Below are positions 2,694 through 36,692 of a stretch of 36,692 bases of DNA, piece after piece; the first letter of the stretch is position 1, and each line of letters opens with the position of its first letter. Source of the stretch: an uncultured archaeon (GTDB lineage: Archaea; Aenigmatarchaeota; Aenigmatarchaeia; CG10238-14; SCSR01); contig CAYRSQ010000003.1 in NCBI GenBank assembly GCA_964427055.1, positions 1 through 36,692 of the forward strand. Direction: 5' to 3'. The position numbers were made by a program, and so were the translations under genes. The notes below the pieces were generated by a model. That model made no database searches. It saw only the letters and a program-made list of their open reading frames with translations, and had not been told where the DNA came from.

Positions 2694-2847
2694 CACTTAG
2701 TTGAAACGATTTACATTGTTTCAGGTGTATACTAAATAGACCCTTAAATGGTGAAAATTAAGTGTTTTAATGATGTTAATTGTTTCTGAAGCAAAAATAA
2801 GACCTTTCTGACAAAAATAAGGCTTAAAATAGATTATTATATCGAAC

Positions 2848-3798: not shown

Positions 3799-3863
3799 TG
3801 AATAGTATTAAGTCCGTTGCCTTTATTATCTTAACTAAAACGAGTGAAACAATCTGAAACAAT

Positions 3864-4898
3864 TCATTCCACAATCACATCTATCTTGAACCCGCAATTG
3901 TAGCATCTATCCCCTATGAGATTGATTTCTTCGACCCTGGTGCCGGACCTCTTGATGACCATTTCCCTGCAGTTGTAGCAGTACGTGTTCTCGTCATCAT
4001 GCCCATCGACATTGCCTATGTAGATGTACCTCAAGCCCCTCATCTGCATCTCCCGCATGCACCTTTCCAGCGTCGGCACTGGCGTAGGAGGCAGATCCAT
4101 AAGCTGATAGTCGGGATGGAATCTCAATATATGTATCGGTATGGCAGAACCCAAATTCGCATTCACGTGTTCGGCGAACTTTCCGCAAAGCTCCGTGCTA
4201 TCTCCGAGCTGGGGAACTATCAGGTTTGTTATTTCGAAAAATATCCTCTGTCTTTTGAGCTGTCTCATCGTCTCGTATATGGGACTGACATCTGGCACGG
4301 ACATGAACTTCTTGTAGAATTCTGGATCCAGCGACGCTTTAATGTTGACAACTGCAGCGTCTATGTACTTAGATATCTTCTTCAGGGCGTCCACTTCCAT
4401 GTATCCATTGGTCACAAAAACGTTCATCAGGTTGTTCCTCTTGGCCAGCTTGGCAGTATCATGCACGAACTCGAAGAACATCGTGGGCTCGTTATAAGTG
4501 TACGATATGCTCTTGCAATTGTTATCTTCCGCCTGTTTCACCACATCTTCCGGGGTATATGTCTTGCCGGTGAAATTTTCCAGATACTTATCAGTCTGCT
4601 GGCTTATTTCCCAATTGTCGCAAAACTGGCACTTGAAGTTGCACCCGAAAGATGAGATTGAAAGTGTTTTTGAATTGGGGAAAAAATGGAAAAGCGGTTT
4701 TTTCTCCATCGGGTCCACGCTGACGTTTGTAAGCTTCCCATAGTTCATAGTGTAGAGCTGATTTTCCTCGTTTTTCCTGACATCGCAAAATCCGTACTTA
4801 CCCTTCCCTATGAAACATTTCCTGGCACAAAGACCACATCTTATGCCGTTCCTTTCCTTTTCCCACAACATAGCCTCGTGTAGCTTGTCATCCGCCAA
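3864..4898 (-). CDS. amrS: AmmeMemoRadiSam-system radical SAM enzyme (PflA-like activase family)
   Basis: N-terminal CGLCARKC...GFC cluster, canonical CNFKCQFCDNW (CxxxCxxC) radical SAM motif, C-terminal CYNC...CYNC Zn-ribbon-like end, and overall length about 340 aa. Confidence 0.7.
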   Translation of the reverse strand: MADDKLHEAMLWEKERNGIRCGLCARKCFIGKGKYGFCDVRKNEENQLYTMNYGKLTNVSVDPMEKKPLFHFFPNSKTLSISSFGCNFKCQFCDNWEISQQTDKYLENFTGKTYTPEDVVKQAEDNNCKSISYTYNEPTMFFEFVHDTAKLAKRNNLMNVFVTNGYMEVDALKKISKYIDAAVVNIKASLDPEFYKKFMSVPDVSPIYETMRQLKRQRIFFEITNLIVPQLGDSTELCGKFAEHVNANLGSAIPIHILRFHPDYQLMDLPPTPVPTLERCMREMQMRGLRYIYIGNVDGHDDENTYCYNCREMVIKRSGTRVEEINLIGDRCYNCGFKIDVIVE

Positions 4899-5034
4899 AA
4901 AATCACCAAAAGAGCATTAGTTCGATTTTATCAGGCTCATCCTTCATCTTCGTCATCAAAAACCTACTAAAATTAAATATTATATTGATATTTCATAGTA
5001 ATATAGATTAACTACGATTCCGTGAAATCAATGT

Positions 5035-5107
5035 GCCTCAGTAGCTTAGTTGGTGGAGCAACTGCCTCGTAAGCAGTAGGTCGCGAGTTCAAATCTCGCC
5101 TGAGGCT
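5035..5107 (+). tRNA. tRNA-Thr (anticodon CGU)
   Basis: Manual cloverleaf: acceptor GCCTCAG/CTGAGGC, anticodon stem ACTGC/GCAGT with loop CTCGTAA, T arm GCGAG-TTCAAAT-CTCGC, discriminator T. No encoded CCA. Confidence 0.9.
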
Positions 5108-5162
5108 TAACTTAAAGATAAAAATGATTAAAAATAATAAAAAAGGAGTGAGAGGTGGGCGA

Positions 5163-5462
5163 ATGGATGTCATAATACATTCCGAGGGCGACAAATACGT
5201 GAAGCTGAAGGAAACGCTACTGGCGGACGACACAATCAACAGAGCCAGTATCATATTCAAAGACGCGAAACAGTACGGGAAAGACAATGGTTACCTGTGC
5301 ATAATCAGCGGCGACGAGGAAAGATGCGAAAAGGCGATAGAAATCGCGAAGGAAGGTGACCTCGGGACGGAAATCACAGGAGAAGAAAAGGAAGTCATAC
5401 TTTCAAAGGTCAAAGAAGAGGGAAACAAGGCTTCTGAGGGATTCGGGAGCATTTTTGGTTGA
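5163..5462 (+). CDS. Small acidic hypothetical protein with ribosomal-stalk-like C-terminal tail (…EGFGSIFG)
   Basis: Strong GAGGTG Shine-Dalgarno 7-8 nt before ATG 5163. The track ORF begins at 5124, but that extension is K/N/G-rich and only 17 nt from tRNA-Thr. No family recognised. Confidence 0.6.
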   Translation: MDVIIHSEGDKYVKLKETLLADDTINRASIIFKDAKQYGKDNGYLCIISGDEERCEKAIEIAKEGDLGTEITGEEKEVILSKVKEEGNKASEGFGSIFG

Positions 5463-5473
5463 ATTTCAAAAGA

Positions 5474-5560
5474 GCGGCGATAGTCCAGTCTGGTTAAGAT
5501 ACGGCCCTGCCAATCCATAGCGGAACGGCCGCGACGCGGGTTCAAATCCCGCTCGCCGCA
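5474..5560 (+). tRNA. tRNA-Gly (anticodon GCC) with 13-nt intron (5513..5525) at canonical 37/38 position
   Basis: Acceptor GCGGCGA/TCGCCGC, anticodon stem CGGCC/GGCCG, loop C-T-GCC-A, T arm GCGGG-TTCAAAT-CCCGC. BHB: 4-bp helix CTGC(5507-5510):GCGG(5520-5523) flanked by 3-nt bulges CAA and AAC. Confidence 0.8.
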
Positions 5561-5637
5561 CTCCTAACTGATAGATAATGTAAAAGTTATATTCACAGTA
5601 AACAGAATTTAATTTAGGAAATGACTGCTGGTGCTGA

Positions 5638-6464: not shown

Positions 6465-6779
6465 TCATTTCTCCAGAACAGTTTCGTAAACTATGAATAG
6501 CGATCCCAACAGAGCAAACAGGGCTCCGACTCCTGCAAATAGGGTATCCAAATAAAGTCCGCTCACGAGGTTGTATAATCTCGGAAGCGTGGAAGCGTCT
6601 ATAATTCCTGCAAACAGGAAGAGTACTCCCGCCGACGCCAACCAATTGAATCCCTTCTCTGTCTTTTTCCTCACTTTCGCCCATTCGGCCAAAGCGACTG
6701 ACAGTAGTAACGCTATTCCAACGTCAATTAAAGCTGAACTGAATACCATTTTATGTTCACCTAATAGAATTTCATTCAA
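6465..6779 (-). CDS. Small integral membrane protein (3 predicted TM helices), hypothetical
   Basis: 104-aa ORF that is hydrophobic throughout (…ALIDVGIALLLSVALAEW…, …WLASAGVLFLFAGII…, …LFAGVGALFALLGSLFIVY…). Alternative start at MVFSS (6749). Confidence 0.55.
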   Translation of the reverse strand: MNEILLGEHKMVFSSALIDVGIALLLSVALAEWAKVRKKTEKGFNWLASAGVLFLFAGIIDASTLPRLYNLVSGLYLDTLFAGVGALFALLGSLFIVYETVLEK

Positions 6780-6851
6780 GCATAATATAAAAGTATTAGT
6801 AATTTCGAAAAATCCACCTTTGTCGAGTGGTGACAGGAGGAAGAATTGGAC

Positions 6852-6941
6852 TTACAGAAGTTCCTCGAAATCCGTCTCTTCGTCATCCCAATCTTCAAGT
6901 TCCGGCTCTTCATCGCCGATGAATTCGTCTTCGAATGCCAT
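6852..6941 (-). CDS. Candidate 29-aa highly acidic micro-protein (MAFEDEFIGDEEPELEDWDDEETDFEELL)
   Basis: ATG preceded by GAGGT 9 nt upstream. It sits in an otherwise empty 244-nt gap on the same strand as its neighbours. Below the ORF-track size cut-off. Confidence 0.35.
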   Translation of the reverse strand: MAFEDEFIGDEEPELEDWDDEETDFEELL

Positions 6942-7023
6942 AGTTAAACCTCGGATTACTACTGAGTAAAATCATTATAATCTATTTAAAGCTTTTGAAT
7001 AGAATGAGCGTTCGTTCGGCCGA

Positions 7024-11445: not shown

Positions 11446-12684
11446 ATGCGAGTGATAAGTGATTTCCATATACACAGCCGTTTCAGCTACGCGTGCAGCA
11501 AAAACATGGTCTTCGAAGAAATAGCCAAAAATGGGCTGCTCAAAGGATTGGATCTGATAGGGACAGGAGATATCACTCAGCCAGTCTGGTTTAAAGAAAT
11601 AAAAGATAAGCTGTCTCGAAATGAGACCGAACCTGGATCTGGCATATTCGATTATAATGGTATAAGATGGATGCTTACAACGGAACTATCAACCATATAT
11701 TCTCAGGACGGGAAAACCAGAAAAGTACATCACGTTATCCATGTGCCATCCGTGGAAGTAACAATCCAGATGAGAGAGCTCCTTGACAAACACGGTAAAC
11801 TGGACTTGGATGGCCGCCCTACGCTTACCAAGATAACTTCTCCTGAACTCGTGGAGGGATTGATGGAGATATCGGATGACATCTTGATATATCCGGCACA
11901 CACATGGACTAGTTGGTTCGGCGTGCTCGGGGAATTCTCAGGGTTCAATTCAATCGACGAGTGCTACGGCGACCAGACTAAACATGTCCATGCCATAGAA
12001 ACTGGGATGAGCAGCGACCCCTCGATGAACTGGAGGATAAAGTCTCTTGACAAGTTCACAATCCTGTCCAATTCGGATGCGCATAGCCCATGGGTATGGA
12101 GATTGGGAAGAGAAGCCAATGTCTTTGAATTGGACAACCTGACATACGATGAGATAAGCGATTCGATAAAGAAGAACGATCCTAAAAGATTGAAATACAC
12201 GATAGAAGTCGAACCTTCTTACGGCAAGTACCATTTCACCGGCCATAGGAAATGCGAAGTCAATCTGAGTCCATCTGTAGCCGCCAAATTGGGCAACATA
12301 TGCCCCGTATGCAAGAAGAAGATGACAATCGGCGTCATGCAAAGGGTCGAAAAGTTGGCGGACAGACCTGAAGGATATACACCTAAAGGTCGTATACCAT
12401 TCAAATCGTTGATTCCCCTCTATGAAATAATCTCATCCGTCACTGGAGTGAACAGGATGTATTCCAATCCCGTGATAATAAAACAGGACCGACTGATTGA
12501 AACATTCGGGAACGAATTGAAGGTGTTGCTGGATGCGAGCAAAGCTGACCTGATGAAAGCAACAGACAGGAAAATAGCAGACGCCATAATAAAAATAAGG
12601 GATGGGAAAGTCGGATATACGCCCGGCTACGATGGAGTGTATGGCGTGCCGATGTTCTCTGAAGATGCTAATAAAGAAGCTTAA
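11446..12684 (+). CDS. endoQ: Endonuclease Q-like PHP-domain nuclease (TIGR00375 family)
   Basis: N-terminal PHP motif DFHIHSRFSYACSKNM. Other motifs are VHHVIHVPS, YPAHTWTSWFG, LSNSDAHSPWVWRLGREANVFE and GKYHFTGHRKC. Zn-finger CPVCKKKMTIGV. Collinear with my recollection of Pyrococcus EndoQ. Confidence 0.65.
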   Translation: MRVISDFHIHSRFSYACSKNMVFEEIAKNGLLKGLDLIGTGDITQPVWFKEIKDKLSRNETEPGSGIFDYNGIRWMLTTELSTIYSQDGKTRKVHHVIHVPSVEVTIQMRELLDKHGKLDLDGRPTLTKITSPELVEGLMEISDDILIYPAHTWTSWFGVLGEFSGFNSIDECYGDQTKHVHAIETGMSSDPSMNWRIKSLDKFTILSNSDAHSPWVWRLGREANVFELDNLTYDEISDSIKKNDPKRLKYTIEVEPSYGKYHFTGHRKCEVNLSPSVAAKLGNICPVCKKKMTIGVMQRVEKLADRPEGYTPKGRIPFKSLIPLYEIISSVTGVNRMYSNPVIIKQDRLIETFGNELKVLLDASKADLMKATDRKIADAIIKIRDGKVGYTPGYDGVYGVPMFSEDANKEA

Positions 12685-12824: not shown

Positions 12825-13799
12825 GTGAAATCAATGAAGTTATCCGTTATCTGCTTCCTGGTCGTCAGTTTCGCTATTATCCCAGCTGTATATTCAGCGG
12901 ATTCATGCTACTGTCTGTATGATTGTGACAATTATGCCCAGTGCGACTTCTACGCAGAACAACCAGATAGCCACCATGAACTATGTCCAGACAGTTCGTG
13001 TGATTCAGACGGAAATTCAAATCCAGTCTCATGTGACGATAACTCAGATTGCATACCCGAAGAGACAGACGACGGAATTGACTACACGGTTTCAGGGACA
13101 TGTACTGAATACACTTGTACAGACAATGAATGTGTAGTGAAATATGTGAGAGACGACAGCTGTGCTGGAGCAGGACTGTGGGAATGGTACGCGGAAGGAA
13201 CTTCATGCAAATCCATATATCGAAGTTGTCCAAACGAATGCTGGAAGAGGGAATATGACCAAGGAACTTGTTATGAAGGCGATGGTGAAAGTTACTGTTT
13301 TTGCTACAATAATGGATGGTCTAGTACACCAACAGGCTATTCCGACGACATGAACTCATACTCAAATCAGAGAGACATAGAAATGACCGAAGGGTGGAAC
13401 CTCATCTCCAACCCGTTCAGTGGAACGTATGGGATCGATAGCAACTGCGAGATTATAGCAAGCATCTACGGATATGACGGGGGCCTCAAACCGATATCAG
13501 ATCCTTTGAATGGCATGAAAGGGGGGAAGGCATATTTGATTAAAGTTTCTGGTGATTGCACAATCAGCCTTGGCGGAAACACACTCATAACCGGAATTCA
13601 ACTCGGCTCTGGCTGGAACATGGTAGGTACAACAGGCAATGATGAAATGACAGTAAGCAAATTCGAATCGGATTGCGACCTATCTTCTAGCATATACTAT
13701 TACAACACTGGTACAGGGTATTTGAAGCCCGTGACGTCTACGATGGATCCGGGCATAGGATATCTAGTGAAAGCTGAATATCCGTGTACGGTAGAATAA
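12825..13799 (+). CDS. Secreted Cys-rich protein with two C-terminal GWN…GYL(I/V)K repeats, hypothetical
   Basis: Signal peptide (…FAIIPAVYSA/DS). The track start is GTG 12825, and ATG 12834 is the more likely start. The N-terminal half has more than 25 Cys. The C-terminal half is two tandem repeats of about 65 aa. Confidence 0.65.
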   Translation: MKSMKLSVICFLVVSFAIIPAVYSADSCYCLYDCDNYAQCDFYAEQPDSHHELCPDSSCDSDGNSNPVSCDDNSDCIPEETDDGIDYTVSGTCTEYTCTDNECVVKYVRDDSCAGAGLWEWYAEGTSCKSIYRSCPNECWKREYDQGTCYEGDGESYCFCYNNGWSSTPTGYSDDMNSYSNQRDIEMTEGWNLISNPFSGTYGIDSNCEIIASIYGYDGGLKPISDPLNGMKGGKAYLIKVSGDCTISLGGNTLITGIQLGSGWNMVGTTGNDEMTVSKFESDCDLSSSIYYYNTGTGYLKPVTSTMDPGIGYLVKAEYPCTVE

Positions 13800-13810: not shown

Positions 13811-15202
13811 TTAATCCTTGGGTATTTCGAATGGCGGACAAGTTTCATACTTAGTGTATGTCGATCCACAATGGCAATGGTTACTCGAATCGCAATAAGC
13901 GCCTTCGTTGAGACCACATGGACCTGTGCTTTCTAATGCAGTATCTGATTTTTCGACGTTACTGCAGCAGTCCGCATTTATGTAACATTCTATGTCCGAA
14001 CCCGTTGATGTTCCGCTAGAACTCAAAGTGGTGAAAGAACTGCATCCACTACTCGGGTATTTTCCTGTATTGTCTGAAGCATCGGTGGATTCTATCCTAT
14101 AATAATATTTAGTATTCGCTACAAGGCTTCTCAGTGAGATTTCATGGCTCTTGACCATTGAACTTTTGGACGTTTTAGTCAATTTAGATGATGTGCAGGC
14201 TGTTCCATACCAGACATCGCTGTCACTTTTTTCATTCGTCGCCCAGCTTACTGTAGCAGAATCAGAATCTATCCCGCTGACACCAGCTGAACTTATAACA
14301 GGTTTAGTCGTGTCAGTGTATCCGCCGTTGTCGTCATTGTCTTCTATGAACAATGCTTTCAATACAGTGATTTGAGTGGATTCATCCACAAAATAATTGT
14401 AACTCAACACGACTTCTACCGGTATCGTCGTGTACGAATCTATGCTTCCCAGTGTGAATGAACATGCGACAGATTTTTGGCCGCTTCTCGGCAGTTTTAT
14501 CTGCTGGTTGGATACGCACGGAGTATTATCGCCTACCTTAATTTTTTCGACCACAACAGTCATGTCGTCTTCATCATCATTGAACGGTTTACCAGACCCG
14601 GCATTCTTTACGATGACTGTCAAAGAGGAAGTTGTACTACCTTTGCTTATTATTGGTTTTGATAACCCGGACAGTTCCACAGTTATTGGTGAATCTGTCA
14701 CAGTAAAACTTTCAAGGCCATTTGAGCTCATTATAGCCTCAGCGTCCTCTGCCACACTCTTTATATAATCGCTGTCGTATACCTTGATATTTCCGACGGC
14801 GGTGGTCTGATAATTGTATGTCATCCTTATAGTTGCCGTATATACATTATCAACTTTCAGAGAGCTTGGAGAAGTTGCTTCCCAATAGGCTTCTCCCGTT
14901 CCCCCAGGTATGTCGCTATCCATTTTTTCCAAAAAGCCTATCTCATACGTCTTGTCTGGTATATTCCAGTCGTTCCCCAATCCAAATATCCTTACCTCGA
15001 CGTCTTTGGCATCCTCTTCGCCTGCATTTTCGACAACTGCCGTGAATACGACTTCATCGCCCGAATAGATTTCGGATATGTCAGGACTAAAATCAGATAT
15101 CATTACTCCTTTGTTCCCACTGGTAGTACTATCTCCTATGCAACCTGATATGAAAACTACAACTAGAATGAGAAACATCAATGAAACACTGCGTGCGTCC
15201 AT
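13811..15202 (-). CDS. Surface lipoprotein-like protein: lipobox, two CARDB-like beta-sandwich domains, fibronectin type III domain, Cys-rich tail
   Basis: Signal plus lipobox-like FISGC/IGD. CARDB-like segment YSGDEVVFTAVVENAGEEDAKDVEVRIFG. FN3-like segment DTTKPVISSAGVSGIDSDSATVSWATNEKSDSDVWYG…TKYYYRIESTDASDNTG. C-terminal 60 aa contain 10 Cys. Confidence 0.65.
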   Translation of the reverse strand: MDARSVSLMFLILVVVFISGCIGDSTTSGNKGVMISDFSPDISEIYSGDEVVFTAVVENAGEEDAKDVEVRIFGLGNDWNIPDKTYEIGFLEKMDSDIPGGTGEAYWEATSPSSLKVDNVYTATIRMTYNYQTTAVGNIKVYDSDYIKSVAEDAEAIMSSNGLESFTVTDSPITVELSGLSKPIISKGSTTSSLTVIVKNAGSGKPFNDDEDDMTVVVEKIKVGDNTPCVSNQQIKLPRSGQKSVACSFTLGSIDSYTTIPVEVVLSYNYFVDESTQITVLKALFIEDNDDNGGYTDTTKPVISSAGVSGIDSDSATVSWATNEKSDSDVWYGTACTSSKLTKTSKSSMVKSHEISLRSLVANTKYYYRIESTDASDNTGKYPSSGCSSFTTLSSSGTSTGSDIECYINADCCSNVEKSDTALESTGPCGLNEGAYCDSSNHCHCGSTYTKYETCPPFEIPKD

Positions 15203-15259: not shown

Positions 15260-16234
15260 TCATTTGGGCTGGAGTTCAAATTGCTCTGAGAGCTCATAAT
15301 GGTATTTGTAGCCGTATTCTGCCCATATACTGGCAGTTGTTTCCGGATCGGAGAAATCAGTCGGTATAAAGATGCAATCCATAGTATCTGGGACTTCCAA
15401 TTTCTCATCCGAATAGAGTTTTCCATTGTCTTCGATGAAATCGCAGTTCAATATATTCCCTTTCGAATCCGTGGCTATCGATAGCGAATCCCTCAAATCC
15501 AAGTTTATGCCGCCGGCTTCAATTACTGTGTCTCTCACAGACCCTATTGAACTGCTTCCCACGTCCTCAAAACTCATTTTCACCGTGAAAGGTATTCCTT
15601 TCGTTCCCCAATATTCCTTTACGGTCTTTCCATCGACCACTTTCTCGCCTCTGGATGGCAATGCAAATTCCAGTTTTATAGGACCGTATGTTGCGGAACT
15701 CTGGGAATATTCCGAGCTTGGATTGTCTTTCAGAGTGTTGTCTATGACCGGCACGTCAAATTTCCTGAAACCTGAATACTCGTATTCGACATAGTAATAA
15801 ATCGTGTAGGTTTTGGGGCTTATCGGATTACTGTCAATCGTATTCAATGTCAGTAGGATTCTTCTGCTGTCTTGAGGCTCTATTTCGCCGTATTCGCTGT
15901 TTTCATCGAAAAGGCACACTTCTTTCACTCCGTTGGAATCGTTGTCTTTGTCTATCGCTTCAGCGCCTTCGCATACAAGTTCGAACGACGTTGGATCGAA
16001 TCCCGGATAGTTAGGGAACCCAACTTCCACTCTGGGAACTTTCTCTTCGCCATTGTTCTGCACAACAAATTCTATTACCACCGGGCTATTAGGATATGGA
16101 TTTTTATTAGACACATAATAATCTTCGATTGTGATTATGTCGTCGCTGTAATGTATCAATTCGGTGTCCTGTTCTATGCACCCCGAGAGGACGACTACAA
16201 GGACCAGACTCGCCAACAAAATGCTGCTCTTCAT
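15260..16234 (-). CDS. Surface lipoprotein-like protein with two CARDB-like domains (paralogue of the N-terminal part of 13811..15202)
   Basis: Signal plus lipobox-like VLSGC/IEQ. Segment NSPVVIEFVVQNNGEEKVPRVEVGF. Shared strand motifs YVEYEYSG, GPIKLEFALP and AEYGYKYHYELSEQFEL. Confidence 0.6.
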   Translation of the reverse strand: MKSSILLASLVLVVVLSGCIEQDTELIHYSDDIITIEDYYVSNKNPYPNSPVVIEFVVQNNGEEKVPRVEVGFPNYPGFDPTSFELVCEGAEAIDKDNDSNGVKEVCLFDENSEYGEIEPQDSRRILLTLNTIDSNPISPKTYTIYYYVEYEYSGFRKFDVPVIDNTLKDNPSSEYSQSSATYGPIKLEFALPSRGEKVVDGKTVKEYWGTKGIPFTVKMSFEDVGSSSIGSVRDTVIEAGGINLDLRDSLSIATDSKGNILNCDFIEDNGKLYSDEKLEVPDTMDCIFIPTDFSDPETTASIWAEYGYKYHYELSEQFELQPK

Positions 16235-27250: not shown

Positions 27251-28093
27251 ATGGGAATATCCAATTTGTCTAAAGCTGTCAAAAAACTAGAAACTGTAGA
27301 CATACAGGGAGCCACGGAGATTGCTATATTCTCATTGAAGACACTGAGAAGGATTGTAAAGAGAAAGGGATTCGGAAAAGAATTCAACGAAGCATCCCGT
27401 AAACTTGAAAGAGCTAGGCCAACCGCAGTGGTATTGCACAATTGCCTAAATATCCTGAAACGGGAAAAAACCATAGATTCAATAAACAGATTGATTGAAA
27501 CACTGGAAACTTCAGACGAGAAAATCTCCGAGAATGGAATCAAGTGTTTTGGTAAGAAGTCCTACAGGCTATTAACCCATTGCCATTCTAGTGAAGCCAT
27601 AGCTATGATAAAGGGACTTAAAAATAAAGGGAAAAACCTGTCTGTCATTGTGACACAGACCGACCCATTGGAACAAGGAATCAAGACCGCGAAAGAATTG
27701 AGTGGACAGAAAATACCAACAACATTAATAATCGATTCGGCAGTCGGACACTTCATAAATGACATAGATGCATTCGTGTTCGGCACTGATGCCATTCGAA
27801 AGGAAGGAATTGTCAACAAGATAGGAACTAAACTATATGCCATTGCCGCAAAAGAGAACAAAAAACCTGTTTACATAGTCGGCAACAACTTGAAATTGGA
27901 CAGAAGAAGAGAATTTGAAATGGAACAAAGATCTCCCAATGAAATCAAGAGAGAACTTTCCAGGCCATATGACTTGAGAGGAATCGTTATAAAAAATCCT
28001 GCATTTGACATAACTCCATGGAAATACGTCACAAGAGTCATAACTGAAGAGGGTGTCTTCACTCCGTCACAAATACAGAGGATGTTAAGATGA
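27251..28093 (+). CDS. e2b2: Ribose-1,5-bisphosphate isomerase (eIF-2B alpha/beta/delta-like family)
   Basis: eIF-2B-family motifs VDIQGATEIA, LLTHCHSSEAI (catalytic Cys context) and VFGTDAIRKEG (Asp). Its stop overlaps the rbcL ATG (ATGA at 28090-28093). Confidence 0.75.
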   Translation: MGISNLSKAVKKLETVDIQGATEIAIFSLKTLRRIVKRKGFGKEFNEASRKLERARPTAVVLHNCLNILKREKTIDSINRLIETLETSDEKISENGIKCFGKKSYRLLTHCHSSEAIAMIKGLKNKGKNLSVIVTQTDPLEQGIKTAKELSGQKIPTTLIIDSAVGHFINDIDAFVFGTDAIRKEGIVNKIGTKLYAIAAKENKKPVYIVGNNLKLDRRREFEMEQRSPNEIKRELSRPYDLRGIVIKNPAFDITPWKYVTRVITEEGVFTPSQIQRMLR

Positions 28094-29310
28094 AGTACGA
28101 GGATTTCATAGACACGAAATACAAACCTAAAGGAAGAGACGTCGTGTGTGAATTTTTAGTAGAGCCTAACAAGGTGAATATGAAACATGCGGCAGGCGGG
28201 ATTGCTGCTGAAAGCTCCATAGGCACGTGGACAGAACTGGAGACCATGAAAACCAGCATCGAAAAGTTATCGGCTAAAGTATTCCAGATAAATGGGAACA
28301 AAATAGAAATCGCGTACCCACTTGATCTCTTTGAACTTGGAAACATGCCAAACCTGTTGAGCAGCGTTGCTGGGAATGTATTCGGACTCAAGGAGATTAG
28401 GAACCTCAGACTGAATGATATAGAATTTCCCAGAAGATTCGTTAAGAGTTTTGACGGTCCGAAATACGGGATCAGTGGTATCAGAAAACTAACTGGAGTA
28501 AAAGACAGACCATTTCTCGGAACCATAATAAAACCCAAATTGGGACTAAGTTCGATAGACCATTCGAAAATAGCATACGAAGCATGGATTGGAGGATGTG
28601 ACATAGTTAAAGACGACGAAAACCTGGCGAATCAAAATTTCAATAAATTTAGGACGAGGGTAACATCCACGCTGAAAAGCAGAGACAAAGCTGAGAAGGA
28701 AACTGGGGAAATGAAACTGTATATGGCAAACGTGACTGCAGAAACGAATGAGATGATAAAGCGAGCGAAGTTTCTTGAAAAAGAAGGCGGGAGATACGTC
28801 ATGGTCGACGTCCTCACAGTAGGATGGGGGGCGCTTCAGACATTAAGAAATGAGGACTTGGATATGGTACTTCATGGACACAGAGCAATGCATGCGGCCA
28901 TAACAAAGAACAAAAAACATGGAATCTCCATGAAAGTGTTAGCTAAACTATTAAGGATAGTAGGAGTAGACCAGTTGCATGTCGGGACTGGAATCGGTAA
29001 AATGAGTGAAAGCGTGCCCGAAGTCAGAGAAAATATAAGTGCACTGACTCAGACCCTTTACGGAACCAAAAAAACTATGCCTGTCGCTTCTGGAGGCATA
29101 CATCCGCTGTTGATACCGGATTTGATAAGTATTTTTGGGAAAGATGTTGTAATACAGATGGGAGGCGGCATACATGGACATCCCATGGGAACGGAATCCG
29201 GTTCCATTGCAGCTAGGCAGGCTCTGTTGTCCTGTAAGGACAACATTCCACTTAAAAAGTTTGCTAAGAGCCATAAAGAACTCGATGACGCAATAAGAAA
29301 ATGGAAATAG
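28090..29310 (+). CDS. rbcL: Ribulose-1,5-bisphosphate carboxylase large subunit, form III-like
   Basis: Active-site motifs GTIIKPKLGLS, GGCDIVKDDENL (carbamyl-Lys/Asp/Glu), LHGHRAMHAA, ASGGIHP and QMGGGIHGHP. Confidence 0.9.
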   Translation: MKYEDFIDTKYKPKGRDVVCEFLVEPNKVNMKHAAGGIAAESSIGTWTELETMKTSIEKLSAKVFQINGNKIEIAYPLDLFELGNMPNLLSSVAGNVFGLKEIRNLRLNDIEFPRRFVKSFDGPKYGISGIRKLTGVKDRPFLGTIIKPKLGLSSIDHSKIAYEAWIGGCDIVKDDENLANQNFNKFRTRVTSTLKSRDKAEKETGEMKLYMANVTAETNEMIKRAKFLEKEGGRYVMVDVLTVGWGALQTLRNEDLDMVLHGHRAMHAAITKNKKHGISMKVLAKLLRIVGVDQLHVGTGIGKMSESVPEVRENISALTQTLYGTKKTMPVASGGIHPLLIPDLISIFGKDVVIQMGGGIHGHPMGTESGSIAARQALLSCKDNIPLKKFAKSHKELDDAIRKWK

Positions 29311-30860
29311 TGATAATAGTGAAATTGAAAGTCAAGATACTGGGAATGAGCGCTGGAGACAAGCCTATTGTGGTTCTAAATAACGACACGGCTGAAGATA
29401 TGGGAGTGATAAGTCTCAATAGAATTGTATTGGAACGCGGAGAAAAAAGTGTAATCGGCATTGTTAACACTTCTAAGAACGTGGTTGGAAAGGGGGAAAT
29501 AGGACTGTTCGATGAGATAATCAAAAACATGGACTTGAAAAATGGCATGGATATATCTGTGAAAATTTCCAGTCAACCAGCTTCGATAGAACACATAAAG
29601 TCAAGATTGAAGGGGAGAAAACTCAGAGAGGATGAAATATTTGAAATTGTAAAGGATGTAGTTGACAATAGACTCAGCGAAATTGAAATCTCAACTTTCG
29701 TTACTTCCCTTAACAACCATCCGATGGACATAGATGAGATTGTCGGGATGACAAGGGCCATGGTCAAAACCGGGAAGACATTGGAATTGAATAGTTCATA
29801 CATCGTCGATAAGCATTCTATAGGAGGCGTTCCCGGAGATAAGACGACACTGCTCGTCGTGCCCATAATAGCGGCATGTGGAATAACGATACCAAAGACT
29901 TCGTCTAGGGCTATAACCTCTGCAGCTGGCACTGGGGACAGGGCTGAAACCTTGATGCCAGTAGAACTGAGTGTAGAGGAGATGAAGACCGTCGTGAAAA
30001 AGACTAATGGGTGTATAGTATGGGGAGGGTCACTCGAACTAGCCCCCGCAGACGACATCTTCATCAAAGTCGAATATCCACTATCTATAGACCCTATGAT
30101 GATACCTTCCATAATGAGCAAAAAGAAGGCAGTCGGCGCTGAATATCTACTCATAGACATTCCGTGCGGGAGAGGAACTAAGGTAAAAAGCATGGGGGAT
30201 GCTAATTTCCTGGCAAGAGACTTCATAGAGATTGGTAAAAGGTTGGGAATCACCACAAGATGTGCTATAACGTATGGAGAACAGCCCATAGGATACACGA
30301 TTGGTGCCGGACTGGAGGCCAAGGAAGCATTAGAAGTATTGATGAGGCAACGTAACGTACCAGACCTTTTGGAGAAAGCCAAGGGCATATCAAAAATTCT
30401 TCTGAACATGATAGGAAAAGATGGTGACAGAATGGTGGAAGATGTTTTCAAATCCGGAAAAGCCGAGGAGAAACTCAGAGAGATTATATTTGAACAAGGA
30501 GGGGATTCTGAAATAACACCAGACGATATACCTATAGGTAAGTACGGGCTTGACGTGGTATCTGAAAGTTCAGGGCATGTTCTATGGATGAACAATCACC
30601 AATTGGCATCAATAGCGAGGGCGGCAGGATCTCCAAAAGATAAGGGTGCCGGAATAGAACTTTATAAAAAAATAGGGGACAAAATCGATAAGGGAGAAAG
30701 ACTGTTCACCATATACTCGGAGAAGACGAGAAAGCTTAAACACGCAAAGGAAAAATTGGAGGAAGAATATCCGATAGAAATTGGTGAACGAAGAAGAATG
30801 CTGATAAGAGAGATTTCTGAACAGAATCCGATTAAAAAACCTTTCCTGCTAGAAAGCTGA
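29301..30860 (+). CDS. deoA: AMP phosphorylase (thymidine phosphorylase family)
   Basis: N-terminal KLKVKILGMSAGDKPIVVLNNDTAEDMGV domain typical of archaeal AMPpase, glycosyl-transferase-family-3 motif HSIGGVPGDKTTLLVVPIIAACG, and C-terminal alpha/beta domain. GTG 29319 just after the rbcL stop is an alternative start. Confidence 0.85.
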   Translation: MEIVIIVKLKVKILGMSAGDKPIVVLNNDTAEDMGVISLNRIVLERGEKSVIGIVNTSKNVVGKGEIGLFDEIIKNMDLKNGMDISVKISSQPASIEHIKSRLKGRKLREDEIFEIVKDVVDNRLSEIEISTFVTSLNNHPMDIDEIVGMTRAMVKTGKTLELNSSYIVDKHSIGGVPGDKTTLLVVPIIAACGITIPKTSSRAITSAAGTGDRAETLMPVELSVEEMKTVVKKTNGCIVWGGSLELAPADDIFIKVEYPLSIDPMMIPSIMSKKKAVGAEYLLIDIPCGRGTKVKSMGDANFLARDFIEIGKRLGITTRCAITYGEQPIGYTIGAGLEAKEALEVLMRQRNVPDLLEKAKGISKILLNMIGKDGDRMVEDVFKSGKAEEKLREIIFEQGGDSEITPDDIPIGKYGLDVVSESSGHVLWMNNHQLASIARAAGSPKDKGAGIELYKKIGDKIDKGERLFTIYSEKTRKLKHAKEKLEEEYPIEIGERRRMLIREISEQNPIKKPFLLES

Positions 30861-31363: not shown

Positions 31364-32845
31364 ATGGCCGAAAACTGTCCAAAATGCGGATCGACAAACC
31401 TCAGGTTTGTTGGAGGTTCTACGGAAGGGAAGGCTAAATATAACTGTAAAGATTGCGGAAAAACGTTTTACATAAACACTAAAAACAACGATGTGCCAAA
31501 AGGATTTTCCTTGAATGAAAGGCTGATTAAATCGATTTTATTCGGAGCTGTGGCTCTATACATGGTATTCCTTTTTCCGATGGGAAACTCCATCAGGGAT
31601 TTATTTGAAACTGTTATACCGAATTACGATTGGGTGTTTTGGGCAACCGTCATAATATTCATGTATAGTATGCTGAATTCCATTTGGAATAGCAATTCCA
31701 ATGGAATAGGAATATCATATCTCTTGTTAATCGCGATAACTATGATAGTGTCAAATATAGGATTGACTTATATCGAAAGCCCCATGGGTCAGCAGTTTTT
31801 GTTATCTACAAGATGCGCTATGTCAGGGTTGTTTTCTCCCGGGACCGACATAACAGAATGTATGGTACCGACAAATCCGAATCAAAATGGACCTATAAGC
31901 ACAAACGACGCGATAACCCTAGATTTCGACAATACCAACAGCGAATATACGATATATAAGACTTCAGGCGGTTTCAATGTCAAACCGTTCTTCATTCTAC
32001 TATCCGTTGAGAATCCGAGCGAGACTAGGGATGTGGAAAATTTCATGATTTCTGGTACTGAATCTACTATAAGGAAAAGTGGCAACATACCGACAAAAGA
32101 AAAAATTGAAATAGCATATCTGGAAACTTCTGACGGGAGTTGCATGGATACGCCATGCGACTTGGAAGCAGGCGAGAAAATGAATCTAGTCGTAAAAGCT
32201 GAGGGCATCTCATGTGATTCCGATACACAGTCCGGATGCGAACTACATGAGATATGTGAATGGGATAACGATGATGGTTGTAGCGTTATAACTAAAGATA
32301 TGACAGAAGTCGAAGTCAAACTTGTATTTTCATACAACTATGCAGTGGAAGAGACTAAGGACCTTCTCTTATCAAGAGATTATTTAACGATACAAACACT
32401 GCTACAGAACACCGAAAGCCCTAGTTCAGTGGTGGATGGGCCAGTATACTTGAAAGTTTCATTTGCACCGTCATATCATGTTTTTGATGAAGACGATGAA
32501 ACAGCCGAAATAGACGTAAACATCAAACTTTCCAACGAAGGTGACGGAAGTGCATACCTATCAGAACCAATTGAAATTACAAGAATCGTCAGTAATGGTA
32601 TATTGTCTAAGCCATCCGTCTGCATTGATCCGTGGGGGGACGAAAAACCTTTGGACGAAAATGAAAAAATCACGATTGCTCCCGATACTGTGAAAATAGA
32701 AGATTCGGCCACATTCACTTGCACCTATTCTGTAGATGGCAACTCTGTGAGAGAGTCAGGTGAAGTTATACCAATAACAGCGACTGCTAGGTACACTTAC
32801 GAAGATACTAAATACAAAAAATACATACAAATCGAAGAAATCTAA
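31364..32845 (+). CDS. Zn-ribbon / 3-TM / extracellular two-domain protein (paralogue of the 13811 and 15260 surface proteins)
   Basis: N-terminal CPKCGS…CKDCGKTF zinc ribbon, three hydrophobic helices (residues about 55-135), then an ectodomain with shared motifs ILLSVENPSETRDVENFMISG, VFSYNYAVEET, GPVYLKVSFAP and ATARYTYEDTKYKKYIQIE. Confidence 0.6.
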   Translation: MAENCPKCGSTNLRFVGGSTEGKAKYNCKDCGKTFYINTKNNDVPKGFSLNERLIKSILFGAVALYMVFLFPMGNSIRDLFETVIPNYDWVFWATVIIFMYSMLNSIWNSNSNGIGISYLLLIAITMIVSNIGLTYIESPMGQQFLLSTRCAMSGLFSPGTDITECMVPTNPNQNGPISTNDAITLDFDNTNSEYTIYKTSGGFNVKPFFILLSVENPSETRDVENFMISGTESTIRKSGNIPTKEKIEIAYLETSDGSCMDTPCDLEAGEKMNLVVKAEGISCDSDTQSGCELHEICEWDNDDGCSVITKDMTEVEVKLVFSYNYAVEETKDLLLSRDYLTIQTLLQNTESPSSVVDGPVYLKVSFAPSYHVFDEDDETAEIDVNIKLSNEGDGSAYLSEPIEITRIVSNGILSKPSVCIDPWGDEKPLDENEKITIAPDTVKIEDSATFTCTYSVDGNSVRESGEVIPITATARYTYEDTKYKKYIQIEEI

Positions 32846-34137
32846 CAATATGATGTAAATCCGCAATTGCTTGAGGATACCACCATTGACCCATCATTTC
32901 CATCCATAATTCTGAATTTCAGCGACATCGATTTGTTTTCGACCTTGCCAATTTCCGTTTCATACAATGGATATGCTTTCTCTCCAGTTATAATGACTGT
33001 CACATCCGCGTCGGCTGTAAACGAGAATGAACATACGGTTTCATAAGAAATCTCAGTGCAGATTTCCGGCTCATCATTTACATTAGATGGTGTGGAAGCA
33101 CATGTACAGCAACAAGTGCATCCCCCTTCTGATGTACATGAATATGAAATTCCTGATCCGCAGTAGGCTGAACATTCCGCCGCACCACCCAACAGACACT
33201 CTCCTGAACATATAGAATCTAGGCTAATACCGCCATTACATTCGATCTCATGCTCGCTTGAGCTACAAGAGCAATCATCTATTTCGTAACCCAGAATCAG
33301 ATCGTTCACAGAAACTTCCACTTGAGCACCATCCAAAATTATTTCCCCGAAGTTTGACTCTATCTCATCCTTCAATATGCTCTCCCAATTACCACACTTG
33401 GCATTTAACAAATCTGAACCGTCGATACATGAAGCTCCAGTAGTTGATATGGTTTTACAATTGCCTGAGCTTGTTGCTCTTTCTATAGCATTGTACAATG
33501 GTCTGTCATTCTCAAATAACGCTTTCCCTTTCGATATGAGATTGAAATACTCCGTATCTAATTCTTCACTGAAGTCTGCATTTTCTTCGAAAACGACCAC
33601 GGAGTTTCCTTTGGAAAGTTTAAGTCCCGAGTTGCAATCATCCCGTATCAAGAAAGAATATGATTCATCATCAGACAGTATATCGACTGATCCGCAATCA
33701 TTGAATTCAGGGAGGTCTATGATCATTCCGAGATTGGAATATGAATTAGAGTACTGTTGACCGTAACAATTGAAGACATCCAATATAGCATCCTTGAGGT
33801 TCTTTTCCACATCGTTGTCGCTTGGAATAAAATTCTTTTCATAAACTCTCCAATACGGTTCGCAGTTTCGAACATTTAGTGGTTCCTGAAAGACATAATA
33901 TCCGCCCTTGCTCAATGTGTCGTACGTGGCTTTGTTTACAGATCTACCGACTGAATTTCTCAAGGACAATTTTAGAAACTCCATCGAATCTATGGTTTCT
34001 ATAACTTCTATTTCTTTTCCAGAACTGTTTAACGCTTTACTGTCAACTATTAACGTGTTCACGGCTATAGCAACCAGTACTACGGCGCCCACCATCGCGA
34101 CAACGATTATTGGAACTATGGATCCTTTATTATTCAC
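32842..34137 (-). CDS. Large prepilin-like (class III signal peptide) protein with an extremely Cys-dense module
   Basis: MNNKG/SIVPIIVVAMVGAVVLVAIAV is a short basic leader ending in KG followed by a roughly 22-aa hydrophobic helix. Residues about 285-375 contain more than 20 Cys, including TCCCTC. Confidence 0.7.
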   Translation of the reverse strand: MNNKGSIVPIIVVAMVGAVVLVAIAVNTLIVDSKALNSSGKEIEVIETIDSMEFLKLSLRNSVGRSVNKATYDTLSKGGYYVFQEPLNVRNCEPYWRVYEKNFIPSDNDVEKNLKDAILDVFNCYGQQYSNSYSNLGMIIDLPEFNDCGSVDILSDDESYSFLIRDDCNSGLKLSKGNSVVVFEENADFSEELDTEYFNLISKGKALFENDRPLYNAIERATSSGNCKTISTTGASCIDGSDLLNAKCGNWESILKDEIESNFGEIILDGAQVEVSVNDLILGYEIDDCSCSSSEHEIECNGGISLDSICSGECLLGGAAECSAYCGSGISYSCTSEGGCTCCCTCASTPSNVNDEPEICTEISYETVCSFSFTADADVTVIITGEKAYPLYETEIGKVENKSMSLKFRIMDGNDGSMVVSSSNCGFTSYC

Positions 34138-34138
34138 A

Positions 34139-34618
34139 TCAATTCACCTGTGTATCGGACGCCAATTCTGCGTCAGTTTCCTGTATAAACGTCACTTTTC
34201 TAGGTATCCCTATTGTAACTTTCTCCACTGCATTTTCGTTGTAAGGGAGAATTATATACGTACTCGCCACATAACTGATATCGCAATTGTTGGGATGAAG
34301 TATCTCATTCGTTCCCAAAGATAGCTGATAACACCCTCCAGGGACGAGCTTGTCTAATCTCGACTTCAACACACTTTCTTTCCATGCATCATCTTCCATT
34401 CCGGATGCAATCGACCCCAGTTTCTCATATACATTTTCATCTGATAGCAACTCCAGCAATGTCAGACCCGCATTGTTGTATCCGTATTGTATTTCCAATA
34501 CCCTTACCAAATGGACTTTTAGAAATACCACAAATATGACTAGGCTTGCTATGGCGACAAACATCGCTATAGTGCCTATTACTGCAATTTCTATTCCAGT
34601 TATCCCTTTTCTTTCCAT
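34139..34618 (-). CDS. Prepilin-like (class III signal peptide) protein
   Basis: MERKG/ITGIEIAVIGTIAMFVAIASLVIFVVF, with Glu at +5 as in bacterial type IV pilins. 1-nt gap to the downstream gene. Confidence 0.7.
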   Translation of the reverse strand: MERKGITGIEIAVIGTIAMFVAIASLVIFVVFLKVHLVRVLEIQYGYNNAGLTLLELLSDENVYEKLGSIASGMEDDAWKESVLKSRLDKLVPGGCYQLSLGTNEILHPNNCDISYVASTYIILPYNENAVEKVTIGIPRKVTFIQETDAELASDTQVN

Positions 34619-34622
34619 TTCA

Positions 34623-35261
34623 TCACAACTCGACTACTCTTACAAACAATCTTCCCGGATGCATCTCTGTCCCATCTTTTATCAGGACAGGGAACTCTCC
34701 TTCATAGACACCGGTCTTAGTTTCGTATGTTTGCCAGCATTCATCCCAGTCCCAATAGTTCCATAATCTGAATGGGTAATTGGCAATCATTCCGAAGAGG
34801 CTAAAATCAAGGTTGTCATTTAAGCAAGTTAGGAACTCTTTCTGATTTTCCAGACCGGGACCTCCCACACCCAATGTCCATTTCTCATCAGTTTCCATGT
34901 CTATCACGACTATCTGCATCCCGGTGCTCGGGTACCCTATTTCTTCGGATAGGCTGCTTTCGATGTTAATCTTATTTTCGCTCATCATCTGGATATCCAA
35001 CTTGTTCCTGTCCAAGACACCTCTATGATATCTAACCAATCCTGATACGTATTCCTCGTAAACTAGATCATCCGAACTTAATATCACTTGAGCTATGTTT
35101 ATTGCATGCCTCTGAGTTTCATGTCCAATCACTATTGCATGCAAATCAAAATATCTGCCATATAAAAGGAAGTAAAGAAAGACTACCATGGCTACCGAAA
35201 AAAATGCGGTAAAGGTCTGTATTATCCAAGTGGCTATTCCCTTTCTATTATTAATCATCAT
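34623..35261 (-). CDS. Prepilin-like (class III signal peptide) protein
   Basis: MMINNRKG/IATWIIQTFTAFFSVAMVVFLYFLL. Overlaps the upstream gene by 4 nt. Confidence 0.7.
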   Translation of the reverse strand: MMINNRKGIATWIIQTFTAFFSVAMVVFLYFLLYGRYFDLHAIVIGHETQRHAINIAQVILSSDDLVYEEYVSGLVRYHRGVLDRNKLDIQMMSENKINIESSLSEEIGYPSTGMQIVVIDMETDEKWTLGVGGPGLENQKEFLTCLNDNLDFSLFGMIANYPFRLWNYWDWDECWQTYETKTGVYEGEFPVLIKDGTEMHPGRLFVRVVEL

Positions 35262-35719
35262 TCATTCCGCTCCAAATCATAAGTGTCAGCAATGATACCA
35301 TCGTCATCCCTATCTTTTTCTATAATGAAATTCCTGACATCTTCCAAACTCAAGGAAACATCTCCGTACCCGATTTTAGCCCATCCTTTCGCAATGGTAG
35401 TCTCAGAACTTATCGAGATTTCTCCGTTGACCCTTATATTTTTTATGTCAATCATTCTATCGTCTATCGTGATGTCATAGGAAATTGTCTCATCTTCATT
35501 CTCATAATATATCGTAATCCTGTCCTGGGCTGCACCGCTTATAGTTATCAAACCTCCCAAATCAAGGGCCGTTCTCTCAGCCGATGATAACGTGAGCAAC
35601 GAAGACATATCATCGATTATCTCAGGGACTTTGAAAGCGACCGCCAGCACGCATATGCTTAATATGACAGTCATTAGGACATCTGTCATCTCTCCCTGTC
35701 CCTTGGAATTAAGGTTCAT
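35258..35719 (-). CDS. Prepilin-like (class III signal peptide) protein
   Basis: MNLNSKG/QGEMTDVLMTVILSICVLAVAF has the classic KG/Q archaeal prepilin peptidase site. The remainder is beta-rich. Confidence 0.7.
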   Translation of the reverse strand: MNLNSKGQGEMTDVLMTVILSICVLAVAFKVPEIIDDMSSLLTLSSAERTALDLGGLITISGAAQDRITIYYENEDETISYDITIDDRMIDIKNIRVNGEISISSETTIAKGWAKIGYGDVSLSLEDVRNFIIEKDRDDDGIIADTYDLERNE

Positions 35720-35744
35720 ATAGAATTATTTCTTTTAGTTGGCT

Positions 35745-36026
35745 TTATTTTTGACACTCGTCTTTAGAAGTGGGCTTAGTTATACCGAAATCGTCGCAAC
35801 TGGTCGGTTCTTCATCGTTCCAGTTCCATGGAACGGTATTGAAATTATTGGCTTCCCAATCGGTGCAATATCTCCTGAACTTGAACTCGCATGCATACGA
35901 CTCCATTATCGGGGTTATGGTTTCGTTCCAGTTCGCATAAGCCAGGAAAGCTACGAAAGCGAACATCCCCATCATTATGACCAGGACCAACGTATGGGTT
36001 GCTATAGCTTTGGTCGAAATAATCAT
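35745..36026 (-). CDS. Small prepilin-like protein (candidate pilin), 4 Cys
   Basis: MIISTKA/IATHTLVLVIMMGMFAFVAFLAYA. Shares the …CE(F/Y)xxxxYC… motif with the next gene (ACEFKFRRYC versus KCEYQRMMYC). Confidence 0.65.
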   Translation of the reverse strand: MIISTKAIATHTLVLVIMMGMFAFVAFLAYANWNETITPIMESYACEFKFRRYCTDWEANNFNTVPWNWNDEEPTSCDDFGITKPTSKDECQK

Positions 36027-36062
36027 ATTACTAATTCCAATTTCAAGAGAAAAATAGTTTAG

Positions 36063-36371
36063 TTAAGAACATGAGAACGTCATAGTATCTGCAAATTCAC
36101 AACATTTGTAGGCATAATACACTAAATCAGCTTTTTCTTCAGTGCATTCATTCGGATCATCATTCTGAGTATCACTAGCAAAACCAGCATACATAGATCT
36201 ATCTTCTAAGTTGCAATACATCATCCTCTGATATTCGCATTTTCTATCTCTCATCGATTTCGAGAACTCGCTGTTAGAGTAGAACAGAGAATAAGTTATG
36301 AATCCCAGCACCATGGCTCCCAATATCAACGCTATGATATACGGAACTGGAACGGCACCTTTTGAATTCAT
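36063..36371 (-). CDS. Small prepilin-like protein (candidate pilin), 7 Cys
   Basis: Start moved to internal ATG 36371, giving MNSKG/AVPVPYIIALILGAMVLGFITYSLF. The track ORF extends to 36422 with no signal-peptide logic. Confidence 0.65.
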   Translation of the reverse strand: MNSKGAVPVPYIIALILGAMVLGFITYSLFYSNSEFSKSMRDRKCEYQRMMYCNLEDRSMYAGFASDTQNDDPNECTEEKADLVYYAYKCCEFADTMTFSCS

Positions 36372-36415
36372 TTCTTTCACATATTTTATTTCGTCACGCG
36401 GGTTATTAAAACTTA

Positions 36416-36691
36416 TTAGCACTTAGGGCAGACATAATTCAATCCACTACACTCCACTGGATTCTGATTAAATGGTGTCGTGGTTCCTCCTATATTTTCA
36501 CAGTATGTCTGGGTTTCGCATCTGGAATCTCCATATCTAAACCCGTTGTCACAAGTATCGTCTATAGTAAGGGCACCACTGTAACAACAATAATACTCTA
36601 TGGATAGCTCACATTCACATGTAGCTAGATTGCATATATCTCCAAGGCCCAGGTTCTGACATTCCGCATCGGTTGAACATGCCGAACCGCA
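36416..36691 (-). CDS. C-terminal part of a Cys-rich secreted protein (gene continues beyond right edge)
   Basis: Open frame from the window edge to TAA (36418-36416). Translation …CSTDAECQNLGLGDICNLATCECELSIEYYCCYSG…RCETQTYCEN…VECSGLNYVCPKC has 17 Cys in 91 aa. Missing from the ORF track because the window contains no start codon for it. Confidence 0.55.
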   Translation of the reverse strand, partial: CGSACSTDAECQNLGLGDICNLATCECELSIEYYCCYSGALTIDDTCDNGFRYGDSRCETQTYCENIGGTTTPFNQNPVECSGLNYVCPKC

Positions 36692-36692
36692 T

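Follow-up and report, generated by a model that had tools for sequence, protein, structure and literature searches.

Does a row of prepilin-like genes at the end of a contig belong to a type IV filament system, and if so, where is the motor of that system? The question is raised by seven co-directional genes, g1 to g7, on contig CAYRSQ010000003.1 of an uncultured archaeon. The stretch that we analysed is the complete contig of 36,692 bp (hereafter the window), and its end falls inside g1. As defined by open reading frame (ORF) listing and translation, the genes lie on the minus strand and run from the contig end down to position 32842. In type IV filaments the precursors enter the membrane, a peptidase of the A24 family cuts off the leader, and an ATPase and a platform protein polymerise the subunits with the N-terminal helices in the core. 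Our analysis indicates that g1 to g7 are, with high probability, that half of a type IV filament locus of the Aenigmatarchaeota which encodes the substrates (pilins). The motor genes look absent because the contig stops inside the cluster, and this apparent absence is most likely an assembly artefact.

Leader peptides and subunit families

As criterion for a class III signal we used a basic residue at position -2, Gly or Ala at position -1 and the rule for position +1 given in PMC3387779. According to that work these three positions are the determinants for the archaeal class III signal peptidase, and Glu+5 is often absent. All six complete proteins, g2 to g7, start with a basic leader of 3-8 residues that ends in KG (KA in g3) and is followed by a hydrophobic stretch or helix. 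Nearly every orthologue in the six families keeps this combination of [KR][GA] and hydrophobic stretch, although the leader is reduced to M-K-G in distant relatives. The exception is g4, in which the hydrophobic stretch starts about 6 residues past KG, with a conserved acidic motif, QGE..[DE], in between. A scan of all ORFs of the window revealed that among the likely genes the leader motif is confined to the operon. Outside the operon, the signals of the scoring likely genes are of the Sec or lipobox type, and the remaining matches of the scan are ORFs that overlap larger genes or have no Pfam match.

The intergenic gaps from g1 to g7 are 44, 36, 25, -4, 4 and 1 nt. All seven ORFs are intact, and g2 to g7 have conserved orthologues. 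The g2 family keeps the motif KG/[AD]VP.PYI.AL in 14 orthologues and paralogues. In relatives this gene is present as one to three tandem copies, and in the window it is preceded by its own 44-nt spacer. In the g3 family the motif K[AG]/[IV]A.H and four invariant Cys were found in 8 orthologues. Both g2 and g3 carry CE(Y/F)xxxxYC, and a comparison of the two families with hhalign gave a probability of 96.4% and an E value of 1.2e-9.

Orthologues of g4 and g6 are present in all relatives. Those of g4 show 38-74% identity and share the motifs KG[QA]GE and SAE.TA.DL.GLITISGAAQD; those of g6 share EY.Y..A.L.LL.LLSD together with two Cys. Close homologues of g5 form 16 clusters only, and an exhaustive profile search defined a g5 family of 166 representative clusters. 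The last operon gene in every relative whose contig reaches that far is g7. Its N-terminal half (about 200 aa) is conserved and can be aligned to orthologues of 454-613 aa; the C-terminal half is rich in Cys and variable. Over the full length, g7 aligns to the orthologue in locus L016 at 33% (related loci are numbered L001 to L018).

Compared with a Cys background of 1.46% in the window, several of these proteins are rich in Cys. The highest content was found in the g1 fragment (14 of 91 residues, 15%), followed by g2 (6 of 102, 5.9%), g7 (24 of 431, 5.6%) and g3 (4 of 93, 4.3%). In g7, 15 of the 24 Cys are located within residues 289-369.

An AlphaFold2 model of g5, based on an alignment of 16 sequences, reached a pLDDT (predicted local distance difference test) of 73. 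The predicted structure has the classical pilin layout: a continuous N-terminal helix of 58 residues (5-62) and then a beta-sheet. When the model was compared with the Protein Data Bank (PDB) by Foldseek, nothing was found below E 0.1; the best match, at E 0.14, was to unrelated proteins. Family profiles of g2, g4, g5 and g6 gave nothing significant against PDB sequences. Pfam and NCBIfam searches with all seven proteins gave no match at E <= 0.1 except a chance sortase match at 0.079.

These results bear out most of a preliminary description of this DNA. It had reported seven consecutive minus-strand genes spaced by -4 to +44 nt, which the measured gaps confirm, and six short basic leaders ending in KG or KA in front of a hydrophobic helix, which are seen in all six complete genes and conserved in their orthologues. 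It had taken the two smallest genes for paralogues, in agreement with the shared motif and the hhalign result, and had called the largest gene, g7, and the truncated g1 Cys-rich, as the counts show. Its statement that the globular parts resemble no known pilin is matched by the empty Pfam, NCBIfam, PDB sequence and Foldseek searches. The gene layout also fits the several minor-pilin-like subunits and large Cys-rich candidate adhesins that it had suggested. Finally, the assignment to class III signal (prepilin-like) proteins of a type IV filament system is upheld by the conserved motif and by the synteny with assembly machinery in relatives, to which we now turn.

Assembly machinery in related loci

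Using Pfam, no T2SSE, T2SSF or A24 peptidase domain was detected in any likely gene of the window, and a scan for polytopic GxGD proteins gave no candidate. The earlier statement that no ATPase, platform protein or prepilin peptidase lies within the window is correct in this respect. As a property of the system, however, the lack of machinery does not stand: the contig ends in g1, and an ATPase and a platform protein adjoin the pilin block in eight loci of relatives.

For this comparison the DNA surrounding the orthologues in relatives was analysed ORF by ORF with BLASTP. All relatives share the order g2 (one to three copies)-g3-g4-g5-g6-g7 within the reach of their contigs. DNA upstream of a g1-type gene is available in eight loci (L001, L004, L012, L013, L014, L015, L016 and L017/L018). 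There, genes for a large Cys-rich class-III-like protein of 288-826 aa (two in L004) and for a platform protein (about 655 aa) lie in front of the pilin block. As a rule, two tiny class-III-like proteins of 47-96 aa are also encoded upstream of the block; in L014 a g2-like gene lies between ATPase and platform instead of the tiny proteins. Wherever the contig is long enough, the first gene encodes an ATPase of about 750 aa. This ATPase is seen in L001, L004, L012, L014, L015 and L017/L018, whereas only its cut 3' end is present at the edge of L013, and it is probably cut at the edge of L016 as well. ATPase and platform are found 2-4 kb upstream of the g2 orthologue. Two coiled-coil proteins (about 130 aa and 260-290 aa) are divergent from the ATPase in L001, L004 and L012. 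The full order in relatives reads: two divergent coiled-coil proteins, ATPase, platform, two tiny proteins, one or two g1-type genes, one to three copies of g2, g3, g4 to g7 and a convergent gene for a membrane protein, conv493.

The ATPase matches PF00437 at 4.6e-11 in Pfam and the TadA and FlaI models of NCBIfam at about 1e-34. Its best PDB match is GspE from Archaeoglobus (afGspE, 2oap) at 3e-25, followed by CpaF and FlaI. The platform protein gave no direct match in Pfam or the PDB. Its family comprises at least 215 homologues; several of them (51-69% identity) contain PF00482 (T2SSF) or are named TadB by JGI, and the platform of L015 shows a weak PF00482 match itself. A prepilin peptidase was not recorded in the relatives' loci examined.

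The fragment of g1 has no BLAST homologue, even among the proteins at the g1 position of relatives. Judged only by its position, g1 would be the equivalent of their large Cys-rich class-III-like proteins between platform and g2. In L001, L014 and L017 the protein found there begins with a class-III-like leader (for example MRKG/AVPTII in L001), and a Cys-rich tail occupies the same place in L002. Two g1-position proteins, L014:12342-14822 and L015:12318-14186, carry modules of the beta/gamma-crystallin or Inhibitor_I36 type.

Two tiny proteins of 47-89 aa located directly past the platform (L001:6424-6627 and 6683-6946; L015:11950-12093 and 12094-12321; L017:11929-12397) have N-termini with [KR][GA] and a hydrophobic stretch, such as MKGKRKG/DVNRFIMLLVILL, and are of Flp-like size. 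They could be additional, or even the real, bulk subunits, and would lie past the end of the window.

Could the N-termini be uncleaved signal anchors of type II membrane proteins that are unrelated to type IV filaments, or could the genes be part of an archaellum? We consider both to be extremely unlikely. It is true that neither the window nor the relatives' loci yielded a peptidase, that no sequence similarity to known pilins was found, and that ATPase and platform are named FlaI and FlaJ in the literature on Aenigmarchaeota (PMC8407114). A simple anchor, however, would not be expected to keep the position of [KR][GA] strictly across six unrelated families or to be physically linked to a type IV pilus (T4P) ATPase and platform in eight relatives, and the helix predicted for g5 is much longer than such an anchor. 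The archaellum was rejected because its hallmark components were not detected: Pfam detected no archaellin or Fla domain in g1 to g7, and the precomputed Pfam results of the relatives' loci contain no FlaH, FlaF/FlaG or FlaX/FlaCDE, with the sole exception of a weak, sub-threshold FlaC_arch match (E 0.011) in a coiled-coil protein.

The gene g5 is contained in three species-level genomes, two metagenome-assembled genomes (MAGs) of Candidatus Aenigmatarchaeota and one labelled 'uncultured archaeon'. The window itself encodes archaeal markers (topoisomerase VI A/B, Alba, aIF1A, tRNA-splicing endonuclease and an S-layer-like protein) and the AMP-salvage trio of e2b2, form III RuBisCO and AMP phosphorylase, all identified by Pfam. 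Contigs of near-complete relatives measure 402 kb (JAUWZS010000001.1), 625 kb (JBFOMW010000020.1) and 783 kb (Ga0315280_10000001), with which a small genome is in accord. The suggestion of a small-genome DPANN archaeon thus agrees with both the labels and the contig sizes of close relatives.

By synteny with the relatives we strongly infer that the machinery is present in the window organism. Five independent assemblies break within the g1-g3 region (the window at 36692, L002:1, L005:1, L006:1 and L010). These breaks may reflect strain-level hypervariability of the Cys-rich and pilin genes, and they are probably the reason why the machinery looked absent.

A different explanation would be that the pilin block stands alone in this genome, either served by an ATPase and a platform encoded elsewhere or as an orphan remnant. 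That a block can become detached is seen in locus L007 (CAYRDB010000001.1), in which TYW2 methyltransferase and nucleotidyl transferase genes precede the pilin block instead of machinery; and nothing is visible upstream of g1 in the window or in L002. A g1-type gene is missing from L007, however, where housekeeping genes are located directly upstream of the g2 copies, whereas the window does contain a g1-type Cys-rich gene upstream of g2. Moreover, all eight loci with DNA upstream of such a gene (L001, L004 and L012-L017) show tiny proteins, platform and ATPase, and the intact ORFs and the conserved orthologues of g2 to g7 do not point to a remnant. A stand-alone block therefore appears very improbable to us. 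Further upstream in this part of L007 (positions 1-5600), four small polytopic membrane proteins of similar size and unknown family are encoded, which look related to each other.

The assignment of g1 to g7 to the substrate half of a type IV filament locus is carried by the gene content, the conservation of the leader motif, the synteny with machinery in relatives and the pilin-like fold of g5. Several observations weigh against it. The 36.7-kb window contains no prepilin peptidase according to Pfam and the scan for polytopic proteins with GxGD, and machinery belonging to the window organism itself is not visible on it. L002, the closest relative with 70% identity in g5, breaks off at nearly the same point as the window, and L016 and L017 are no closer to the window than L002. 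In L007 the genes upstream of the block are not machinery. None of the pilin families matches a known pilin or archaellin model or structure in Pfam, NCBIfam, the PDB or by the g5 fold. The AlphaFold2 model of g4, built from 6 sequences, shows a helix (6-60) and then strands, but with a pLDDT of 47 it is unreliable, and this confidence is too low for a structure search. In addition, several of the residues at +1 to +4 (S, G, P, W and H) are unusual for the consensus.

Proposed assembly and function

For the proteins of the window we propose the following course of leader cleavage and filament assembly. The precursors would insert into the membrane via the N-terminal hydrophobic helix, and a peptidase of the PibD/FlaK/EppA type, encoded elsewhere in the genome, would cut the leader of 3-8 residues after [KR][GA]. 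ATPase and platform would then pull the subunits out of the membrane and stack them into a filament with the helices directed inward. The best candidates for the bulk subunit would be g2 and g3, because they are the smallest proteins, g2 occurs in two to three tandem copies in relatives, and both genes have their own upstream spacers. The four tightly packed genes g4 to g7, with gaps of only -4, 4 and 1 nt, probably encode a priming or tip complex of fixed stoichiometry, in which g7, together with g1, would provide exposed binding modules stabilised by disulfides. By analogy with other episymbionts (PMC9894109, PMC11291902) the filament would most likely mediate adhesion to a surface or to a host cell.

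The same machinery might also build a short pseudopilus or a device for surface display or secretion, similar to a bindosome or to type II secretion, which exports or presents proteins and enzymes and does not form a long adhesive pilus. The many different 'minor' subunits and the few obvious major ones would fit such a product, and functionalised archaeal type IV filament machineries have been discussed (bioRxiv 10.64898/2026.04.22.720090). It would also fit that enzymes are found on pilin-like modules in relatives. Three clusters of the g5 family (P0232, P0233 and P0236) keep the N-terminal half, and in them the C-terminal half is swapped for an enzyme; the fusion partners are glucosaminidase (PF01832), GH5 (PF00150) and a NosD beta-helix with an SLT transglycosylase. 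In L014:17365-19527 an N-terminus similar to g6 (hhalign probability 82%, E 1e-5) is combined with a GH5 domain. In the window, however, g5 and g6 themselves carry no enzyme domain, and the locus contains no genes for solute-binding or secreted cargo proteins. The small g2-type subunits are furthermore amplified in tandem, which is typical for pilins that form filaments. On balance, we regard a pseudopilus or display device as unlikely and prefer a filament with g2 and g3 as candidate bulk subunits.

The enzyme fusions, together with the beta/gamma-crystallin-like modules at the g1 position, hint that minor-pilin modules act as carriers of functional domains. One could go further and imagine that across the Aenigmatarchaeota the g4-g7 unit is a modular tip complex which carries envelope-degrading enzymes at the end of a type IV filament. 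The pilus would then be a device to breach or remodel the envelope of the host rather than a simple adhesin, and the Cys-rich g1 and g7 would be its host-specific, fast-evolving binding parts in the window organism. This idea is speculative, and we give it little credence.

With the assignment proposed here, six unannotated families, for which neither Pfam nor NCBIfam has a model, are attributed to the substrates of the type IV filament locus that is conserved in this phylum. The proposal names candidate genes for the bulk subunit and for the tip subunits, and in this way concrete targets for proteomics, antibody labelling and cryo-electron tomography are gained. The enzyme-bearing pilin modules of relatives may bear on the interaction with a host; a characterised symbiont-host system of the Aenigmatarchaeota was not found in the literature examined.

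Described systems and neighbouring genes

Is the locus a new kind of system? Homologues of FlaG, FlaI and FlaJ have been reported in most Aenigmarchaeota MAGs (Li et al. 2021, PMC8407114), and two conserved T4P-like loci with CpaF, TadC and coiled-coil proteins are present across cluster-2 DPANN including Aenigmarchaeota (Hamm et al. 2024, Nat Commun, PMC11291902). In view of these published loci the preliminary description went too far when it spoke of an undescribed system. Judged by the published description, the loci analysed here resemble those of cluster-2 DPANN in their distribution at the level of the phylum, with Aenigmarchaeota listed by name, in the core of ATPase and TadC-type platform, in the two coiled-coil proteins beside the ATPase in L001, L004 and L012, and in the proposed role in host interaction; a correspondence to the published 'locus 1' or 'locus 2' is based on the description only. 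The published part consists of the machinery and the coiled-coil proteins, whereas the 10-12 class-III-like substrates found here are not described in either of the two papers.

The general plan of archaeal T4P loci comprises an ATPase, TadC, a dedicated major pilin, at least five minor pilins and a large adhesin-like protein, often with conserved Cys (Makarova et al. 2016, PMC4858521). Our loci follow this plan: they contain ATPase and TadC, a small putative dedicated major pilin, at least five candidate minor pilins and a large adhesin-like class III protein, accompanied by accessory membrane or S-layer-like proteins and by frequent conserved Cys. The same work states that archaeal pilins evolve very fast; its text does not name DPANN and includes only Nanoarchaeota from that group. 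The pilin families of the present locus differ from those of catalogued archaeal T4P in that they match no Pfam or NCBIfam model.

In a recent classification of archaeal type IV filament systems, a few DPANN loci appear in the system 1, 4A or Aap-like groups (Sivabalasarma & Albers 2026, bioRxiv 10.64898/2026.04.22.720090). The closest in flavour is System 1 (Epd-type), which is reported in some DPANN. In contrast to System 1, which has two platform genes, the loci studied here have a single fused platform (about 655 aa), and no EppA or FleN/MinD was found in the related loci. The motif QXSXEXXXL of PF04021 is also missing (no PF04021 match at E <= 0.1); only g4 shows a partial KG/QGE..[DE]. 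Because of the missing PF04021 match, the single platform gene and the lack of a peptidase in the loci, the system was not assigned to System 1.

Tip complexes of bacteria, such as GspH-I-J-K of the type II secretion system and FimU-PilVWX with PilY1 of type IVa pili, offer a further possible analogy. Here as there, four pilin-like genes are tightly packed and graded in size with the largest last (153, 212, 159 and 431 aa), the tip-like genes come after a small putative major subunit, and a large extra protein is the likely adhesin. The two differ in that no sequence similarity and no structural similarity to the bacterial proteins was detected, and the leaders follow the archaeal pattern (basic residue at -2, no conserved E5). 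Taken together, we would place the locus in the archaeal T4P superfamily as a lineage-specific member with unannotated substrate families. Although its annotation is poor, the system is of an ordinary kind and no new kind of machine.

Where sequence downstream of the operon is available, the flank of the relatives matches the window: it contains a conv493 homologue, Alba and AMP phosphorylase, to which RuBisCO and e2b2 are added in several loci. The protein conv493 has an N-terminal zinc ribbon (matches in Pfam and NCBIfam), three transmembrane segments and an extracellular domain (about 350 aa) that contains Cys. Its gene overlaps g7 by 4 nt at the 3' ends (32842-32845), which leaves no room for a terminator between them. 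In all relatives with a contig of sufficient length, a homologue faces the g7 orthologue in convergent orientation. This linkage to the pilin block persists even in L007, where the machinery is not adjacent. The protein is likely an accessory or anchoring factor. A role as a novel peptidase was rejected, since the protein has only three transmembrane segments and no conserved Asp within them.

Table 1. Coordinates of the operon g1-g7, its convergent neighbour and further features of the window. A slash marks the predicted cleavage site.
Feature	Position	Strand	Length	Description
g1	36416-36692	-	91 aa + stop	C-terminal part of a large Cys-rich protein; cut by contig end
g2	36063-36371	-	102 aa	MNSKG/AVPVPYII... 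(MNSKG/AVPVPYIIALILG...); prepilin-like, candidate major filament subunit
g3	35745-36026	-	93 aa	MIISTKA/IATHTLVLVI...; prepilin-like, g2 paralogue
g4	35258-35719	-	153 aa	MNLNSKG/QGEMTDVLMTV...; candidate minor pilin; first of four tightly packed genes
g5	34623-35261	-	212 aa	MMINNRKG/IATWIIQ...; candidate minor pilin
g6	34139-34618	-	159 aa	MERKG/ITGIEIAVIG...; candidate minor pilin
g7	32842-34137	-	431 aa	GTG start; MNNKG/SIVPIIVV...; candidate tip subunit or adhesin
conv493	31364-32845	+	493 aa	Convergent membrane protein; conserved neighbour, probable accessory component
S-layer-like protein	290-2581	-	763 aa	
Sec-signal protein	12825-13799	+	324 aa	23 Cys; without Pfam match
Lipobox-like protein	13811-15202	-		SGC
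Lipobox-like protein	15260-16234	-		SGC
AMP-salvage module	27251-30860	+		e2b2 isomerase, form III RuBisCO, AMP phosphorylase; tightly packed

Some further observations concern genes of the window at a distance from the operon, among them those of other surface proteins (S-layer-like, Sec-signal and lipobox-like; Table 1). One of the two lipobox-like proteins matches PF16656, the N-terminal domain of purple acid phosphatase. Synteny between the AMP-salvage module and the pilus locus is also seen in L001, L002, L004 and L006 and, at least in part, in L015 and L016. The genes of the phosphorylase and RuBisCO are separated in L001 by an inserted gene with a faint LAGLIDADG likeness.

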